A stretch of DNA of 64,000 nucleotides from IMG/VR virus record IMGVR_UViG_3300010163_001518, positions 8,671-72,670 of that record, one strand, 5' to 3'. Source of the stretch: a virus. Taxonomy: Duplodnaviria > Caudoviricetes. How positions within the stretch are numbered: the first letter of the stretch is position 1; each line of letters starts with the position of its first letter. This document shows, piece after piece, positions 19,049-26,946 of this stretch. The notes beneath the pieces were generated by a model that saw nothing but the letters and a program-made list of their open reading frames with translations, had not been told where the DNA came from and made no database searches. Both the position numbers and the translations under genes were made by a program.

Positions 19049-20029
19049 TTAGAGCATCATGAGGCTCGAGGCTTGCTCGATCGTCTTGAGGGTGACGAGG
19101 TTCTCGCCCCTCTCCTCGAGGATGCGCTTGACGTTGGAGAGGGTACGGTCGAGGAGGCGGAAGCATCCAGTCTGCATATTACAGGCCCGGGCCTTGAGCT
19201 CGACCATGGCGTCGGGAGCGACCTCGAACTCGGAGACGTACTTCTCCACCTCCGAGGGTTCGAGCCCCTTGAGGGAGATGTAGAAGTCGACCCGGTTCGC
19301 CATGCGGGCGAGGTAGGTCTTGATCGCGGCCTCGAGCTTCGGCTCCCCGGCGATCACGACCCCGACGTCGCTCTGGTCGAAGATCGCCCGGAGTATCTCC
19401 ATCTTCTTCTGCGTGTACTTCGAGACGAGCTTGTCGGCCTCGTCGATAATGAGGAGGTAGCCCTTGTTCGTGTTGAAGAAGTCCCGGATGCCGTTGACCC
19501 TGCGCCAGATCGTCCCGTAGCCGCTCGGGATGCCGAGGGACTTCTCGATCGCCTCCACAAGATCGCGGCTGCTCATGGTGTCGTCACACTCGATATAGGC
19601 GACCCGGGGGAGCTTCGCGTAGTGCCGGAGGCTGTAGGTCTTCCCGTAGCCGCTCCGGGCGACCACGATGCCGAGGCCGATGTACTCTTGACAGGATTGA
19701 CACACGCCCAGGACGTTGACCGCGTCCCGCGTCTCGAGGAAGGAGGGCTTCCGCCCGGTCTTCCCGGGCCGCTCCGGGACGTCCACGGTCTCGCCCGTGC
19801 GCCGGGCCAGCCAGTCGGCGAGGAGGGCCTCGATGGTGGTGATGTCCCCCTCATACTTCCCCGCAAGATAGCGGGAGATCGTCGGGCGGGAGTAGCCGGG
19901 GATTTCGTTCGCGAGGGTGGCGATGCTCGTCCGCGTGGCGGCGAGGTATTCGTTGATCTGCTGGGCGAGAGGCTTGCCCTGGGTATAGGTGGCGGTCTGC
20001 TCCGCCGCTGCTGCTGTTCTGACTTCCAT
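19049..20029 (-). CDS. Transposition AAA+ ATPase (MuB-like)
   Basis: N-terminal HTH, ARSGYGKT Walker A, LLIIDEAD Walker B. Confidence 0.93.
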   Translation of the reverse strand: MEVRTAAAAEQTATYTQGKPLAQQINEYLAATRTSIATLANEIPGYSRPTISRYLAGKYEGDITTIEALLADWLARRTGETVDVPERPGKTGRKPSFLETRDAVNVLGVCQSCQEYIGLGIVVARSGYGKTYSLRHYAKLPRVAYIECDDTMSSRDLVEAIEKSLGIPSGYGTIWRRVNGIRDFFNTNKGYLLIIDEADKLVSKYTQKKMEILRAIFDQSDVGVVIAGEPKLEAAIKTYLARMANRVDFYISLKGLEPSEVEKYVSEFEVAPDAMVELKARACNMQTGCFRLLDRTLSNVKRILEERGENLVTLKTIEQASSLMML

Positions 20030-20039
20030 GATGTTCCTC

Positions 20040-22106
20040 CTATTCGTTCATGGCCCTCAAACGGGCGAGGGCGTCGTCTGCCTTCTTGCCGAGGAACTCG
20101 TCCCCGGACGCCTTCTTCTTGTGGGCCCGGCTTGTGGCCTCGGCCCTGTATTCCTTATCCAGCGGGAGCGAGATGCACTTCGAGGGCCGCTCGGCCTTGA
20201 TCGTCAAGTCGATCATGCCGACCGCCTCGGAGGGCCGTCCGCCCTCCTCCCCCCGGAGCTCATAGGGCCGCGTCATGCTGTCCAGTATCTCGCGCATTTC
20301 GCGCTCCTGCCGCTTCTGATCGCGGAGGTGCTTCTCAAGTGCCGCTTGCGAACAGTGGGGCCCGAAGGCCAGCAGCTCGGGGGAGACGGCCTCGCATATC
20401 TTCCGGCCCTCCTCGTCGAAGACGTAGAGCTTCGTCACGTCGTCGATGTCCCACTTCACGCCGACCGTCTTCCCGACGTAGTGCGAGAGCTCGTAGTCGG
20501 TGTAGACGGTGCCGAACTTGTTGATGCCGTAGTTGTAGACCCGGGCCGTCGCTGCCTTCATGAGCAGCATCGCGGCGTATTCCCTGGGCGGTGCGGCCTT
20601 CTCGTAGCGTTCGCCGTTCTCAAAGAGCTCGATCGGCGTGACCCACTTCTCGCCCGCATCCTTGAGGCCCCGGTGTTCCCGGGTGTGGTACTTTTCGTTC
20701 TTCCACTTCGTCCAAACCTCGAAGAACTCCTCCATCGTGAGCAGCTCCCCGCGCTCGAGCATGGCGTCGACGTCCTTCTGCCGCTTCGCGTAGGTCTTGG
20801 AGCCCGTGAGGGTTCCGACGTAGGACTCGAACCACTTCGAGAACTTGGAGCAGACCGTCCCGAAGAACCGCTCGATCGGTTTGTCCCACGGCTGATAGGG
20901 GAGCGACCGTCCGACCTCCTCGATGCCGATTGACTGATAGAAGCCCACGGTCTCGGCATCGAAGCTGAACTCGATGTTCCGCTTCTTCCGGCTCTGTCCC
21001 GTCATGGTCTGCGCCGTGTAGTCCTTGCCGTTGTCGACGTGGAGGATGTGGGGGACGCCGCCCGGGTGGGTGTAGATCATCTTGACGAGGCTCTCCTTCA
21101 AGGTCTGACTGTTGGCGTCTATACAAGCGACGTCGCCCACGATCGCCCGGCTCCTCATATCCAGCCACGCGACGAGCTTCGGGCGGACGGCCTTGATCTT
21201 GCCGTTCGGGGCCGTCCACTGTACCCAAAAATCGAAAGTGTGCTCGTCGCCGACGACGTACTCCATGACCTTGAGGCTCGTCGCATCCCGGCGTCCCTTG
21301 AGCATCATCTTGTTCTTCCACTCCCTCGAGCCGTTGGCGGCGAGGTAGCGGGCCGAGGCCGCGCCCCGGCTGTCCATGAGATACTTGACATACCGGGCGA
21401 CGGTCTTGATGCTCGGGAACTCCGCCCAGCCCCGGCCCTCTGCGATCTCCCCGAACTTCTCGTAGAGCATCTCGATCGTCCCGAGGTTGGCGGCGAAGCG
21501 GCGGTCGAACCATATATTCTCGATGACCGCCCGCTGCTCCGGCGTGAGGCTTGGGAAGGTGTCCTTCTCCCGGGGCTTCCTGCATAGGGACAGGGCCCGG
21601 AAGTAGTCCCGGTTCTGCCCGTCCTCCTTTTCCAGCTTGAGCGCCCAGGCGTTCGCCTTGAGGACGTTGTCGACGTAGCGGTAGAGGGTCGGGAGGCTCA
21701 CGCCCAGACCCAGCGCGTAGCGTTCGGCGTAGGCCGTGCGGTCGGGGCCGTCGTAGTCGATGAAGTCCTGGACGCGGGCCGCGAGCTCGACGGCCTCGTA
21801 GTATGCCTTCTTGTTCTGCTCGATGTAGTGATTGAGGTCGGCCCCGACATACCAGGGGGCCACGTCGGCTCTCTTGTCTATGATGACATCCCTCCCGTCT
21901 ACCTTCTGCGCGGCCTTCCACGCCTTGCGCCCCTTCGGGGAGAGGGAGGAGACGGAGATCATAACCTGATCTTTGCCGCCGCCCTCTCGGGGCTGTGTTT
22001 TGGTCTTGTATTGCTGCGGGTTGCGTTTCACGCGCTTTTGAAAAGTGTCGTATGCGACCCCCTCAAAGGTTGCGGCCTCCTCGAGACCGATGAACACGTC
22101 CGGCAC
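20040..22106 (-). CDS. DDE transposase (MuA-like)
   Basis: VGDEHTFD, HVDNGKDY, KPIERFF catalytic motifs; Mu-type C-terminal domain. Confidence 0.95.
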   Translation of the reverse strand: MPDVFIGLEEAATFEGVAYDTFQKRVKRNPQQYKTKTQPREGGGKDQVMISVSSLSPKGRKAWKAAQKVDGRDVIIDKRADVAPWYVGADLNHYIEQNKKAYYEAVELAARVQDFIDYDGPDRTAYAERYALGLGVSLPTLYRYVDNVLKANAWALKLEKEDGQNRDYFRALSLCRKPREKDTFPSLTPEQRAVIENIWFDRRFAANLGTIEMLYEKFGEIAEGRGWAEFPSIKTVARYVKYLMDSRGAASARYLAANGSREWKNKMMLKGRRDATSLKVMEYVVGDEHTFDFWVQWTAPNGKIKAVRPKLVAWLDMRSRAIVGDVACIDANSQTLKESLVKMIYTHPGGVPHILHVDNGKDYTAQTMTGQSRKKRNIEFSFDAETVGFYQSIGIEEVGRSLPYQPWDKPIERFFGTVCSKFSKWFESYVGTLTGSKTYAKRQKDVDAMLERGELLTMEEFFEVWTKWKNEKYHTREHRGLKDAGEKWVTPIELFENGERYEKAAPPREYAAMLLMKAATARVYNYGINKFGTVYTDYELSHYVGKTVGVKWDIDDVTKLYVFDEEGRKICEAVSPELLAFGPHCSQAALEKHLRDQKRQEREMREILDSMTRPYELRGEEGGRPSEAVGMIDLTIKAERPSKCISLPLDKEYRAEATSRAHKKKASGDEFLGKKADDALARLRAMNE

Positions 22107-22387: not shown

Positions 22388-22804
22388 CTACTTCCGGGCC
22401 ACGGCTCGGGCGAGGGCGACGCCCACGCCCACGAGCGCCGTCGCCTGGACGACGGGGTCGGGGAAGTTCAGCAGCACGGCGGCGGCGGCGAAGCCCAGCG
22501 CCGCCACGGCGGCGAGCCCGAAGACGATTGCCCCGTCCAGCAGCACGTCGGCGAACTTGACCGCCCGGCCCTTGAGCTTGAGCACGGCCTCGGCCCGTTT
22601 CCGGCGCTCCTCATTCTCAAGTAAATTGAGAACGAAGTCCGCCGCCGCGAGGTCGGCCTCCACCTTCTCAAACTGCGCCTCCCGTCCCGGGCGGGCCCGC
22701 ATGGGAGCCCGGGGGTCGCCGACCGCCCGCTTCTGCCGGAGCAACTCGAGCCGGAGCGACTCGGCCCAGGCCCGGGCCTCCTTCGTGGTGACGGCCTTGT
22801 TCAT
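22388..22804 (-). CDS. Hypothetical protein with C-terminal TM segments
   Basis: 138 aa co-oriented ORF. Confidence 0.6.
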   Translation of the reverse strand: MNKAVTTKEARAWAESLRLELLRQKRAVGDPRAPMRARPGREAQFEKVEADLAAADFVLNLLENEERRKRAEAVLKLKGRAVKFADVLLDGAIVFGLAAVAALGFAAAAVLLNFPDPVVQATALVGVGVALARAVARK

Positions 22805-24693
22805 GTCTGCCCTCCTTTCTGCGCTTGTGAGAGCCTTTTCTTTGTTACGGCTATAGGGAACTCCTCGATCTCACTCGCCCATAGACAGGTTTCGGGGCCG
22901 TTGAGCCGCTCCCATATCAGAGGAAAGCCCCCTATCCCGTCGAACAGGCTCGCCAGCGTCGGCGGGCGTCTATAGTAAGCAGAGAGCCGTCTTAATATCC
23001 ACGTCCACGGCGGGAGCGCGATGGAGTTGCCCAGGGCCTTGTATCGGGTGGTGTCGGAGCATTCCCGGGGCTTGCCCTTGCTGTCCACCCATGGGCCGAT
23101 GTCTGTCCACCCATCCGGGAAGCCTTGGAGGCGCTCGCACTCTAAAGGTGTCAGCCGGCGGATGACATCGCTTGTCTCGGGATCGACGATGATGTTCGCC
23201 TTTGTTGAGTCTCCTCCGCACGGAGTCCGCAACGTCGCACCGATGTCGCTCTCGTTCCACCATCCTGCGCCTGTGTTTTGAAAGGCCATGACAACGGGCT
23301 GCTCGTGATTGCAGTTGAGCGTCGGGGCAAGCCCCCGCATGATTTCTGTGTTCGCTTGCCCGGTCGCCATGATGAGCGGCGTATAGTCTGACACGCGGCC
23401 CGCGTGATCTCCGACAAGAGTACAAACGGTCTTTCCGTCGCCGTTTCCCCGGGCGTCATAGACGGCGGGAGTCTGCGCCGTGCAAAGCGTCGGGGACTTC
23501 TCGACGGTGTAATCAATTCCCGCTCCGGCTCCGGCCTGCCATTTGAACGTGGCACACACGACGGGTTGATGCCCGTGCTCTTGGGCCCGAAGCGTCCCCG
23601 CAAGCTCTACACACACATCCATAAACCGCCCGCCTTGATCGTTCACGCAAAAGAGAGTTTGGTCGTTGCTGCATTGGAGCGTCCCAGAGAGCTCCTCTTG
23701 AATTAGAGCCCCTTTTCCTCCTCCCGAACATCCACCGCGGACTCTAACCGTGAGCGCTCGAGAAGGGCTCGCTCGAGCTCGGGTGGCATCGGCTTTCCCC
23801 TCCTCCGAGATCGCCGGAGTATCCCCTTGCAAGCTCTCGCGCTCAAAGAGTATTTCGGGTGCGGTGAGTCCTCCAAAATCCACGACAAGCGCGATTCGAC
23901 GGCGACGTTGGGGGACTCCCCAAAACTGTGCATCAAGAACTCTGTAGGCAAGAGACCACCCGTCTCCATAGTAGGCGTCTGCCAGGGGCCAGCGACCCCG
24001 GGGAGGTAGTGGAACGTCGGGCGCGTCCGGTTCTGCGATACGGATTGTCTCCTCGAGGACGGCCTTAAAGTCCTCTCCTTTGTTGCTTGTGAAGGCTCCG
24101 GGCACGTTCTCCCACACCATGAACCGGGGGCGGATTTCTTGCCCCGTTCTGCCTCGTTTGATGTCTGCATCTCTAAGCTCCTTTACCAGTCTGATCTGCT
24201 CCATAAACAGGCCAGAACGGGCCCCGGAGAGCCCTTCCCGCTTTCCCGCGATGGACAGGTCTTGGCAGGGGCTCCCGCCGATGACCGCATCCACGGGCGG
24301 GGCGGTATAGCCAGATATGGAGGTAATGTCTCCCAGGTGTTTCATGTCTTCCTCCTTTTCGTGATCGCCTGGGTCGATAGCATCGGCGAGTCGGCTGAAC
24401 TGCTCCTCATACTGCCAACGAAGGGCGGAGGCCAGGCTCTCCTGCGTCATCCCCTCCACGGGGCCGAGGTTGGTGTAGTAGCCATTCACGAAGATGGCCC
24501 CCGGGTCTGTGGCGAGGATGGTCTTGATTTCCCGAACGTCGGCGGGGTCAAAGATGAACTCGTTGTTTTTGTCGATGTCGGGCCAGAAACAAGCGGCCTC
24601 CCATCCGCGCCCCTCCTTGTAGAGGGCAATCCAGGCGATGCCGTCCCGAGCTTCCTCGAGAACTTCCCGGGCTGTAGTTCTAAGACTTGCCAT
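22801..24693 (-). CDS. Circularly permuted C5-cytosine DNA methyltransferase with fused N-terminal domain
   Basis: GSPCQDLS (IV), WENVPG (VI), PQRRRR (VIII), RRLTPLECERLQGFP, YKALGNS (X); SLFDGIGG (I) and ASEIE (II) at the C-terminus; RBS-preceded ATGs at 24693 and 24345. Confidence 0.9.
   Translation of the reverse strand: MASLRTTAREVLEEARDGIAWIALYKEGRGWEAACFWPDIDKNNEFIFDPADVREIKTILATDPGAIFVNGYYTNLGPVEGMTQESLASALRWQYEEQFSRLADAIDPGDHEKEEDMKHLGDITSISGYTAPPVDAVIGGSPCQDLSIAGKREGLSGARSGLFMEQIRLVKELRDADIKRGRTGQEIRPRFMVWENVPGAFTSNKGEDFKAVLEETIRIAEPDAPDVPLPPRGRWPLADAYYGDGWSLAYRVLDAQFWGVPQRRRRIALVVDFGGLTAPEILFERESLQGDTPAISEEGKADATRARASPSRALTVRVRGGCSGGGKGALIQEELSGTLQCSNDQTLFCVNDQGGRFMDVCVELAGTLRAQEHGHQPVVCATFKWQAGAGAGIDYTVEKSPTLCTAQTPAVYDARGNGDGKTVCTLVGDHAGRVSDYTPLIMATGQANTEIMRGLAPTLNCNHEQPVVMAFQNTGAGWWNESDIGATLRTPCGGDSTKANIIVDPETSDVIRRLTPLECERLQGFPDGWTDIGPWVDSKGKPRECSDTTRYKALGNSIALPPWTWILRRLSAYYRRPPTLASLFDGIGGFPLIWERLNGPETCLWASEIEEFPIAVTKKRLSQAQKGGQT
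23703..24170 (-). CDS. Nested out-of-frame ORF, putative MTase beta subunit (M.EcoHK31I-like arrangement)
   Basis: AAGGAG 7 nt before ATG; LSWILEDSPHPKYSLSARACKGILRR resembles the L.DILE..KY.LS segment of C5 MTases. Confidence 0.7.
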   Translation of the reverse strand: MQTSNEAERGKKSAPGSWCGRTCPEPSQATKERTLRPSSRRQSVSQNRTRPTFHYLPGVAGPWQTPTMETGGLLPTEFLMHSFGESPNVAVESRLSWILEDSPHPKYSLSARACKGILRRSRRRGKPMPPELERALLERSRLESAVDVREEEKGL

Positions 24694-24722
24694 TTGCTGC
24701 TGCTCCTTCCTGTTGTGTGGTG

Positions 24723-24887
24723 TCAACCGACCGAGGCCGGGACGACTCCGATCTTGTCGGTGTGTTTGTGGAGGATGACGAGCTCGCCGTTCTGCTTCTG
24801 CTTGATGACGAGCCAGTTCTCCGGGGCAAGGCCCGCCTTGCCGAGCCTGATCTTCTGCTTCCGCGTGGGCTTCTTGCCGTTTCTCAT
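24723..24887 (-). CDS. Small basic protein, first early gene
   Basis: AAGGAGG RBS; MRNGKKPTRKQKIRL...PENWLV. Confidence 0.7.
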   Translation of the reverse strand: MRNGKKPTRKQKIRLGKAGLAPENWLVIKQKQNGELVILHKHTDKIGVVPASVG

Positions 24888-24969: not shown

Positions 24970-24998
24970 ATTATATTTAACAAGTGAGGAATTGTCAA
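24970..24998 (-). promoter_or_regulatory. Early lytic promoter (Pe-like)
   Basis: Perfect TTGACA-17-TATAAT on minus strand; inverted 15-bp boxes at 24977-24991 and 25006-25020. Confidence 0.8.
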
Positions 24999-25046: not shown

Positions 25047-25550
25047 ATGGAAATTGTATTCTCGGATGTTGGATGCAGGATTGCGGGACGCATCAAAGAC
25101 CTCGGCCTCAAGCAGTTGGACATCTGCAATAAAACAGGGCTTTCGACCACGGCCTTGAGCCAATATTGCACGGGGAAAAGAGTCCCTGACACGGTATCGC
25201 TCTACAAAATCGCGACCGCCCTCGGCGTGTCGATGGAGTGGGTTTTAACGGGTGAGGATTTAACGGTCGAGGACGTGCGTGACGCCGCGCTCGATCTCGC
25301 CCAAATCAAAAAAGAACAGGGGCTCACCTGTGACGGGAGCCCCCTCGACAACATCGAAGCCGATCTTGTCGCCATGTTCCGGCTTCTGCCCCCGTCCCAT
25401 AGGGAGGAGGTGTTTGACCTCGTCTACTTCAAGTACAAGCGCCACATAGAAGGGGAAAAAGAGTCTATCTACTGGACGTATTCCGACGAGAGCAGCGACG
25501 AAGGAAGCGGCCCCGCCGAAGGCCATAAGACCCACGATGAGACCGCTTGA
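25047..25550 (+). CDS. Immunity repressor (XRE HTH, c-like)
   Basis: HTH in N-terminal half; divergent from early operon; AAGGAGG RBS. Confidence 0.85.
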   Translation: MEIVFSDVGCRIAGRIKDLGLKQLDICNKTGLSTTALSQYCTGKRVPDTVSLYKIATALGVSMEWVLTGEDLTVEDVRDAALDLAQIKKEQGLTCDGSPLDNIEADLVAMFRLLPPSHREEVFDLVYFKYKRHIEGEKESIYWTYSDESSDEGSGPAEGHKTHDETA

Positions 25551-25589
25551 TTTTTTGCGCCTGTATGATTAAAAGATAAATCATTTCAT

Positions 25590-25694
25590 TGTCCGATTGC
25601 TTGAAGCCCCTCGGCGAGCGTTGAGAGCCCCGAAACCGTTGAAAACAGGGCAATCGGACAATCGGACACGGAAACGATGAAAATGTCCGATTGC
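25590..25694. repeat. Four copies of CAATCGGACA (two per strand)
   Basis: 25590-25600 (rc), 25650-25660, 25659-25668, 25684-25694 (rc). Confidence 0.75.
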
Positions 25695-25875
25695 TCCGGG
25701 CCGATTTTCGGGCGCTCGGGGCCCGGCGTCGTGCCCGTATGCACGGCTCGAGTAACGGCTTGTAACGGCCCCGCCCGGCGCGATCGCGGTGATGGAGGCC
25801 CTCAAAACGGCCTCTTTTGGAGTGCCGCCGTTAATTCCTGCACGTTTTAACGCCCCGTTCGCACACCTCGCCCCC

Positions 25876-25904
25876 TTGCCTTTTTTGGGGGCGTCTGCTA
25901 TAAT
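25876..25904 (+). promoter_or_regulatory. Sigma70-type promoter of candidate sRNA
   Basis: TTGCCT-17-TATAAT. Confidence 0.65.
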
Positions 25905-25908
25905 TCGA

Positions 25909-26041
25909 CCATGGGCCGCGAAGCCCGTCCTCTTGCGTCTGCTGCTGCTGCTGACTTCCGGGACGGGTGGAGCGGCCCTCTTGCCGTTTAGGGCCCTGTT
26001 TTCAAGGCTTTCGCGGCTCCGTGGCCTCGCACACGTCCAGC
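25909..26041 (+). ncRNA. Candidate structured multi-target antisense RNA
   Basis: Basal stem 25909-25925/26006-26024, stems CCCGTCC/GGACGGG and GGCCCT/AGGGCC; loops complementary to early-gene start regions. Confidence 0.6.
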
Positions 26042-26085
26042 GCCGCCGACGCCGTCCTGGGCCTGTCCTGGGCTCCCGAGGGCAT

Positions 26086-26110
26086 GAAAAAAGGACGCCG
26101 ACCGCGTCGA
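26086..26110 (-). terminator. Minus-strand terminator inside Mu end
   Basis: GACGC-GGTCG-GCGTC hairpin followed by CTTTTTT on minus strand. Confidence 0.45.
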
Positions 26111-26124
26111 CGCCCCGTCTCAAG

Positions 26125-26946
26125 TTATTTGACAGAACGGGCCCCGCTCGCGGGCCTGTCCCGGTTGAAAATGTCCTGTTTCCCGTTGAAATAGCGGGTT
26201 TTCTCACCCGTTCCCGCCGTGTCTCGGTTTATCCCGTGTTTCTCAAATATCCTGTCCCCGTACAATTTCTCTTTTTTGAATCGGTCCAGCAGCGCCTCCT
26301 CGACGCGGTCGCCGTACTTCAGCCCCAGCAGGAATACCACCGCGCCCAGCACGCCGATGGCCGCCATGGCCCCCAGCGGCAGCTGGATGGCCGAACTGCC
26401 CACAGCACATGCCACCAGCAAGCCCCAGGGGCGGGTCAGGGCCGTGATGATCAGGAAGCGGCCGAATTTGATGTCCGTCAGCCCGGCCAGAATACAGATC
26501 AGGTCGTCCGGGAAAAAGGGGAACAGGAACACCAGGATCAGCAGTGTGTCCCGCTTCCGCCGAATCAGCTCCAAATACCGCTCCGACACCCGCCTGCCCA
26601 CCATCCGGTCGGCAAATTCCTGGCCCAGCACCCGGGCCAGAAGGAACACCACCGCCGACCCCAGCAGCACCGCCCCTGCCGTCAGAAGAAACGCGGGCCA
26701 CAGCCCGAACGCCACCGCTCCCGCCGCCGCCGTGATATTGCTGGGGATGGGGGCCACGATCACCGAGGCCAGCTGAACGATAAAGTAGATCAGGTGCGAG
26801 TAGGGGCTGAAGCGCTCAATGTAATCCCGCACCCCGTCCAGTGATGCGGCAGCTGCAAAAAAACCCGTCTGATACAGAAAAATCAGGCCGCCCCCGATCA
26901 GCGCCACCGCGGCCACCAGCGTTCCAACCCATTTTTTCTGTCTCAT
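26125..26946 (-). CDS. Host TVP38/TMEM64 (VTT/DedA) membrane protein, 3' end replaced by Mu DNA
   Basis: Multi-TM; PIPSNITAAAGAVAFG, LFPFFPDDLICILAGLT; sequence after ...RFKKEKL is read from the phage end. Confidence 0.85.
   Translation of the reverse strand: MRQKKWVGTLVAAVALIGGGLIFLYQTGFFAAAASLDGVRDYIERFSPYSHLIYFIVQLASVIVAPIPSNITAAAGAVAFGLWPAFLLTAGAVLLGSAVVFLLARVLGQEFADRMVGRRVSERYLELIRRKRDTLLILVFLFPFFPDDLICILAGLTDIKFGRFLIITALTRPWGLLVACAVGSSAIQLPLGAMAAIGVLGAVVFLLGLKYGDRVEEALLDRFKKEKLYGDRIFEKHGINRDTAGTGEKTRYFNGKQDIFNRDRPASGARSVK
26150..26264 (-). repeat. Mu c-end with putative transposase-binding repeats
   Basis: Terminal TGTA; recurring GGGACAGG and TTTCAAC(C)GGGA(A)ACAGG motifs. Confidence 0.65.

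Follow-up and report, generated by a model that had tools for sequence, protein, structure and literature searches.

By comparative sequence analysis, the left end of a Mu-like gut prophage was found to carry a plus-strand structured RNA element whose loop has conserved complementarity to the mRNA of the transposition gene MuB, beginning at the start codon. The element is probably a MuB-directed small regulatory RNA of Mushu-type transposable phages. All positions are given for the stretch of DNA that was analysed (64 000 nucleotides, here called the window), which is part of a 72.7 kb virus record.

Judged by its sequence, the prophage is related to Faecalibacterium phage Mushu, the closest named phage, and the entire left end of Mushu aligns to positions 25480–26264. 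Mushu is a Mu-like phage for which replication by transposition has been demonstrated (PMC5883640). The features of a Mushu-type transposable prophage were found together, namely a MuA DDE transposase with a MuB ATPase, a terminal ...CA and flanks that vary between copies. The early operon was located using Pfam; it is encoded on the minus strand and runs leftward from ∼25 000. It contains a DUF6906 gene (Pfam), a C5-methyltransferase ORF with its start at 24693, a Ner-like HTH gene and MuA (20040–22106; Pfam Mu-transpos_C and DDE_2), which lies just upstream of MuB in the same operon. The target gene itself, at 19049–20029 on the minus strand, encodes a MuB-like AAA+ ATPase of 326 residues (Pfam AAA_22 and TniB). 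A repressor gene of the HTH_3 type (Pfam), homologous to the annotated Mushu repressor, occupies 25047–25550 on the plus strand; the RNA is encoded on the same strand, downstream of the repressor.

Some further observations were made on the early genes. A perfect TTGACA-17-TATAAT sequence (12 of 12 matches; 24970–24998, minus strand) precedes the first early gene, the real start of which is the ATG at 24886; it is likely to be the early promoter and is only ∼50 bp from the repressor start. The minus-strand frame at 22801–24726 encodes a 641-residue protein in which an LPD15 domain is fused to the C5 cytosine methyltransferase. Behind the 5′UTR that precedes this gene in the window, the relatives carry an unrelated gene of no known family (MRKIKKING...), for which a Pfam search returned no families; from the sequences, the two genes are a mosaic swap of an early gene. 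Relatives of the repressor were not found by a peptide-pattern search of viral contigs, an exact-protein look-up of the repressor returned no record and a scan for tRNA and tmRNA genes gave none.

The left terminus of the phage (26140–26264) contains repeated GTTTC/ACGGG motifs and ends ...CCCCGTACA at 26264, with host DNA from 26265. Related phage ends, 57 in all, were collected from viral contigs in two pattern searches, one of them with a pattern of 15 nt. Homology among these ends (47–57 sequences) stops exactly after ...CCCCGTACA or ...CTCCCCACA and the flanks are all different, and the end of the phage in the window was therefore assigned to 26264, and not to a position near 25900. An earlier reading of the window made from the letters alone (the sequence-only reading) had correctly recognized the region as a non-coding phage end. 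The candidate RNA sits 350 bp inside the phage, within a 714 bp non-coding left end; its homology to Mushu and to the 57 phage ends indicates that the element belongs to the phage and is a conserved module.

Across the terminus, the minus-strand ORF at 26125–26946 is a host membrane gene of the VTT/DedA family whose 3′ end has been replaced by phage DNA. Its similarity to host homologues covers residues 1–227 and begins at 26265–26278; the last 46 codons are phage DNA. The other phage end was not found in the 72.7 kb contig, and a search for the empty insertion site in relatives of the host yielded no flank that could be aligned; in the nearest genomes (Pseudoflavonifractor and its relatives) the VTT gene is only ∼70% identical. 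An intrinsic terminator directed into the phage (26086–26116, minus strand) consists of 11 pairs, seven of them G–C, and a T6 run, and its hairpin and A/T run are kept in the relatives. It probably insulates the prophage from host read-through, in this case from the disrupted VTT gene, and has no action on the plus-strand RNA.

A promoter directed towards the phage end is present on the plus strand at 25876–25904, as the sequence-only reading had proposed (TTGCCT-17-TATAAT). It comprises a −35 box TTGCCT (25876–25881), a 17-nt spacer and an extended −10 box TGcTATAAT (25896–25904); the boxes match at 10 of 12 positions, with TG upstream of the −10 box, and transcription is predicted to start at ∼25911. 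Both promoter and hairpin are conserved in the 57 related phage ends. The −35 and extended −10 boxes are kept in all homologues, the spacer between them is variable and the −10 bases G, T, A, A and T are invariant (39 sequences). The element thus appears to have a promoter of its own that is conserved among homologues, as would be expected of a small RNA gene. Immediately upstream of the −35 box, a further element (GCACG-N3-TAACGC-N2-CGTT-N-GCAC; 25843–25868, plus strand) is kept in all homologues; it also served as a search pattern and retrieved further members of the family. This element may be a protein-binding site. It resembles the ACGGG...AAAAC repeats near the phage terminus, and if MuA binds to it the transposase could influence the promoter of the RNA.

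The conserved hairpin of 66 nt (25913–25978, plus strand) was defined by covariation and folding. It is built from a basal stem (25913–25919/25972–25978), a small internal loop, an upper stem (25923–25931/25960–25968) and an apical region (25932–25959). Folded alone, it has an energy of −41.1 kcal mol−1 (z = −4.74), which was reached by none of 200 shuffles, and in 13 of 14 representatives the same 66-nt hairpin is also the fold of lowest energy. Pairing was assessed in 22 distinct sequences using RNAalifold and pair counts: 98.3% of the cells in the stems are paired, and sliding the partners as a control lowers pairing to 25–54%. Compensatory changes were found at four pairs in these 22 sequences (G–C/A–U at two, C–G/U–A at two), compared with 0.4 expected, and none of 500 shuffles reached this number. 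An RNA structure at 25913–25978 is established by this covariation among the homologous sequences.

The structure proposed in the sequence-only reading was larger, with a basal stem (25909–25925 paired with 26006–26024) enclosing two hairpins. Its first hairpin (CCCGTCC/GGACGGG) is present and is 96% paired on 39 aligned homologues. On the same 39 homologues the basal stem is 70.7% paired and the second hairpin 24–39%, and neither is conserved. The fold of the proposed 141-nt structure is no better than chance (z = −1.59; 16 of 200 shuffles). Stem conservation in the homologues was found for the single hairpin 25913–25978 and not for the large basal stem or the second hairpin.

Several of the stem pairs are G·U and one is U·G in all 22 sequences. 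Such pairs point to an RNA transcribed from the plus strand, because the other strand or duplex DNA would give C·A. They bear directly on the alternative that the element acts as DNA, the inverted repeat and the motif shared with MuB being sites for MuA or another protein, or forming a cruciform at the phage end. The element does lie within the transposon end region, among repeated motifs, and in our own reading the conserved upstream element is similar to the repeats nearer the end. A function at the DNA level is nevertheless very improbable, given that the stems tolerate G·U pairs, that the compensatory changes keep pairing and not sequence, that substitutions on the MuB side obey the rules of wobble pairing and that the promoter is conserved at the correct distance.

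That the region codes for a small protein on either strand is scarcely credible. Open frames do cross it in this G+C-rich DNA, and a GenBank hypothetical protein, AUV61513.1, is annotated on the opposite strand of Mushu (L073, MG711460; 43–363). The ATG at 25912 is, however, not a start codon, as it is AAG in many relatives; indels of 1, 2 and 4 nt break the frames, and the open frames differ among relatives, the longest opposite-strand frame of L106 having 28 residues. A Pfam search of the CDSs at the left end of Mushu returned no families, and the CDS at 43–363 would run through a conserved terminator. Coding on either strand was rejected on the grounds of the indels, the shifting open frames and the non-conserved ATG, and AUV61513.1, which overlaps the hairpin and a terminator on the opposite strand and whose frame the relatives do not keep, probably does not represent a gene.

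Beyond the hairpin, the 3′ part of the RNA is variable. In the window (25979–26024, plus strand) it comprises the second hairpin of the sequence-only reading and a weak terminator-like GCCCUG-UUUU-CAAGGC, followed by UUUCG; a scan of the plus strand of the window gave no terminator-like site before 26182. A strong intrinsic terminator is present in the Mushu group (with a U6 tract), in L084 and in L085, where an RNA of ∼120 nt is predicted, and the terminator arms of L084 show compensatory changes. In the near relatives of the window a U-rich tract comes after the hairpin itself. Terminator candidates in the window and in these near relatives are all weak, and the 3′ end in the window is uncertain.

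Expression was examined in unstranded Logan contigs of RNA libraries, which were compared with L090, a record identical to Mushu over the 236-nt stretch compared. In two studies, contigs from RNA libraries of the lysogen extend from the repressor region across the homologous hairpin, with the strand unreadable and carry-over of DNA possible. Their ends, at L090 positions 1025 and 1028, fall within the 5′ arm of the terminator predicted there. A contig from a third study (X10) ends at L090 1110, which is the predicted start. Runs X10 and X13 of one study gave no contig over the hairpin, and such holes prove nothing. No contig covers L090 2100–2340, and loose contig ends there match the Mushu record, which suggests that L090 differs from the lysogen's copy at 2100–2340. 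The RNA-library contigs give a weak hint that the hairpin RNA is expressed in the lysogen.

The same contigs have to be weighed in considering whether the hairpin is mainly the 3′ end (a terminator or 3′UTR) of the repressor transcript and no independent small RNA exists, in which case any pairing with MuB would be made by the long repressor mRNA or by a fragment processed out of it. The hairpin lies downstream of the repressor on the same strand, the RNA contigs are unbroken from the repressor gene through the hairpin, and several relatives have a U-rich tract, for example UUUUUU in L115, behind the G+C-rich basal stem. This origin is quite unlikely in view of the promoter with conserved boxes immediately upstream of the hairpin, and of the stretch from the repressor to 25827, which is non-homologous in window-like relatives while promoter and hairpin are homologous. 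That one RNA contig (X10) stops at the predicted start also speaks against it, although this is a weak point. Transcription with the repressor would in any case alter the origin of the RNA and not its pairing partner.

The pairing partner was identified from the apical region. The loop segment UCUGCUGCUGCUGCUGACUUCC (25938–25959, plus strand) is near-invariant in 39 aligned homologues and is complementary to the MuB mRNA. Its target site in the window, GGAAGUCAG-AA-CAGCAGCAGCGG (20005–20027, minus strand), extends from the G of the AUG (20029–20027) through codon 8. The loop of the relatives reads ...CUGCUGCUGUGACUUCC; that of the window has an extra CUGC, the MuB gene of the window has an extra AGA codon, and a pairing of 9 + 12 bp around a 2-nt bulge is retained.

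Among the related phages, MuB starts ATGGAAGT(C/T)ACAGCAGC..., the exact complement of the loop, in all of 21 related MuB loci except three, which have ATC at codon 3. When 17 related MuB loci were scanned, the longest complementary run on the opposite strand was the MuB start in 14, with 16–19 contiguous nucleotides. The exception is the L092/L107/L115 lineage, in which the sequence GAA ATC introduces an uncompensated A·C mismatch and 12 + 4 bp are left. In the paired MuB codons the only synonymous variants seen are GTC/GTT and GCA/GCG, and either change retains pairing, as G·U; the MuB codons right after the paired site diverge freely. The seed and its complementarity to the orthologous target thus both appear to be conserved, as would be expected of a trans-acting small RNA.

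Start regions were ranked as possible targets using the interval from −25 to +35. Of 41 start regions in the window, that of MuB ranks first (−43.1 kcal mol−1, compared with −33.7 ± 2.9 for shuffled loops; 1 of 200 shuffles), and it is also the best start region in L113, L098, L206, L103 and L202 (0 of 200 in each; z of −3.2 to −5.7). An earlier test on the interval −25 to +21 was not significant (p of 0.11–0.13) because this interval cut the MuB site of the window. A duplex scan of the whole phage without accessibility was uninformative because G+C-rich coding regions give many energies near −47. The match to the MuB start noted in the window is thus one instance of a family-wide antisense pairing that far exceeds chance. 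The dimer of small RNA and mRNA is predicted to be more stable than the two monomers by 11.5 kcal mol−1 in the window and by 6.3 kcal mol−1 in Mushu. The 5′ third of the loop (CCUCUUG) is unexplained by the pairing with MuB, and one relative, L189, retains the RNA despite a deleted MuB.

The sequence-only reading had proposed an immunity RNA whose loops would silence five genes, namely MuB, the first early gene, the methyltransferase, ner and MuA. All five matches are literally present in the DNA at the coordinates given, but as a five-target scheme only the match to MuB goes beyond chance; those to the first early gene, ner and MuA are at chance level and are not conserved. The match to the first early gene lies in the second hairpin, which the relatives lack, and is absent from L189 and Mushu despite the presence of the same gene. 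Its 11 of 11 matching positions are ordinary, as the 135-nt region shares exact words of at least 11 nt with at least four other places in the phage, away from starts. Tested against the start regions, the loop of the second hairpin performs no better than shuffles (p of 0.3–0.47). The match to ner covers 8 nt and that to the MuA start falls where the sequence is variable; among the relatives examined, neither match is kept.

The match to the methyltransferase stands partly apart from these. It covers the ribosome-binding site and spacer of this gene (GGAAGGAGCAGCAGCA; 24695–24710, minus strand) and shares the motif GGAAG-N2-3-(A)CAGCAGCA with the MuB site. The homologous 5′UTR in the relatives, before the MRKIKKING gene, keeps GGAAG-N2-3-ACAGCAGCA, and its start region ranks second to third in L113, L098 and L202. 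The methyltransferase start region is second of 41 in the window, yet it is within the range of the shuffles there. The recurrence of this match at the homologous 5′UTR therefore stands, but inside one genome it is not distinguished from shuffled controls, and by sequence the ribosome-binding site of the methyltransferase is a possible second target. Comparison of the start regions with shuffled controls supported MuB but none of the other proposed targets.

For an RNA with many targets there are, in addition to the MuB pairing and the recurring methyltransferase site, two observations on the relatives: the 5′ part of the loop can pair with codons 3–6 of the MRKIKKING gene, and a G/U difference in the loop accompanies ATC/ATG in that gene. 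The poor pairing of the second hairpin, the absence of the first-early-gene match where the gene is present, the lack of conservation of the matches to ner and MuA, the further exact matches away from starts and the position of the methyltransferase site within the shuffle range together make such an RNA improbable.

In the mechanism that is proposed for the MuB-directed RNA, the extended −10, constitutive-looking promoter would transcribe towards the phage end from ∼25911, and the RNA would start directly with the long G+C-rich hairpin 25913–25978. About 17–22 nt of the apical region would form a duplex with the MuB mRNA, reaching from the start codon up to and including codon 6–8; this mRNA is made 5.9 kb away and on the other strand, so that the RNA would be trans-encoded. 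MuB is the ATPase that activates MuA and captures target DNA. The duplex is predicted to lie within the 30S footprint and would for this reason be expected to block the initiation of MuB translation; a site for RNase III in the A–B mRNA may arise from it as well. As an expected outcome, transposition that is leaky or early would be damped in the lysogen, or the A:B ratio would be set. The RNA may be produced by initiation at its own promoter, by the repressor transcript reading through or in both ways, and a weaker second target may be the ribosome-binding site of the first large early gene, which is the methyltransferase here.

Both partners are strictly conserved and the substitutions keep wobble pairing, which would fit self-regulation more than a weapon of exclusion, since a weapon should drive its targets to diversify. 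As a rather doubtful extension, the RNA of a Mushu-type prophage might silence both MuB and the first large early gene (GGAAG-N2-3-ACAGCAGCA), in its own genome and in superinfecting relatives of other repressor specificity. If true, the RNA and the MuB start would together be a family-wide lock, adding RNA-based cross-immunity on top of the protein repressors.

Among known systems, RNA-OUT of IS10/Tn10 is similar in that it, too, is a stem–loop RNA of ∼70 nt from a transposable element, with a loop directed at the mRNA of a transposition gene, where it pairs at the extreme 5′ end or around the start and blocks ribosome binding; for the phage RNA, this pairing and block are predictions. RNA-OUT is cis-encoded and overlaps its target, whereas the phage RNA is 5.9 kb from its target; the RNA gene (25911–25978) and the target (20005–20027) do not have the opposite-strand overlap of a cis-antisense pair. 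RNA-OUT targets the transposase and the phage RNA the MuB ATPase, and the complementarity is ∼35 nt in RNA-OUT and 16–22 nt in the phage RNA. The pairing of a stem–loop with the start region of its target, as in RNA-OUT and sar, is predicted for the phage RNA as well.

The c4 RNA of P1/P7, the sar RNA of P22 and the CI RNA of P4 are likewise phage antisense RNAs that restrain lytic functions through loop pairing at ribosome-binding sites. The c4 and CI RNAs are processed from the same transcript in which their targets reside, and the sar RNA is of the cis-antisense type; none of the three is known to target a transposition protein. The arrangement of c4, in which the target lies downstream in the same operon, was not found, the target operon of the phage RNA being on the opposite strand. 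A search of the whole window with Rfam at gathering thresholds returned no family, C4 included, and a search of 25500–26200 at E ≤ 10 returned only noise.

The trans-encoded small RNAs that act in the five-codon window are comparable in having a short conserved seed in an accessible region and a site from +2 to ∼+20, with an expected block of the 30S subunit. Their seed is at the free 5′ end, whereas that of the phage RNA is in a hairpin loop. The host of the phage is of the Clostridia type (Oscillospiraceae), for which Hfq dependence is not known. As reported for ISPpu9 (PMC8450116), Asr9 and Ssr9 are also small RNAs of a mobile element that lie beside its transposition gene and control expression of the transposase; ISPpu9 is an insertion sequence of Pseudomonas, and the arrangement and target given there differ from those of the phage RNA. 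By analogy, the phage RNA would work like RNA-OUT and the phage immunity RNAs, but it is not a member of either family.

Mu-type transposable phages are a textbook example of control by proteins only (repressor and Ner). Neither an RNA regulator of the transposition machinery nor a small RNA was found for Mu-like phages in the literature searched, and a MuB-directed RNA brake on transposition would be a variant of antisense control that is absent from that literature and from Rfam. In recent papers, Mushu-type phages are reported to be very widespread in human guts and highly conserved there. The RNA described here lends itself as a test case, with its definition by sequence, its one clear target and its conservation among Mushu-type phages, and it makes it possible to test what keeps these prophages silent in important butyrate-producing bacteria. 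The analysis also flags the hypothetical protein annotated at the left end of Mushu as probably spurious.

Repeats were noted on both sides of the RNA gene. The stretch just downstream of the repressor gene (25590–25693) holds TGTCCGATTG in four exact copies with an inverted arrangement. At the same place Mushu has three exact copies (0.18 expected) of a different word, TGTAGAATTG, with one more copy, containing a mismatch, elsewhere. These repeats look like phage-specific protein-binding sites; none were found between the repressor and the early promoter. An inverted repeat of 27 nt (25625–25651/25993–26019; 89% complementary) flanks the promoter and the hairpin. Its arm at 25625–25651 is 85–96% conserved in Mushu-like phages and holds CCCGAAAC, which recurs in reverse near the terminator. 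The two arms may be transposase-binding sites or form a long-range RNA stem; a role as a processing stem was considered and set aside, the arms not being kept as a repeat in Mushu in our reading of the alignment.

Only one relative, the IMG/VR contig L189, is homologous over the left end in its entirety (76% identity). Its MuA is truncated, with 430 residues, and MuB is absent, with head genes directly next, ∼3.3–5 kb from the RNA gene. L189 is a deleted prophage in which the RNA gene is still kept.
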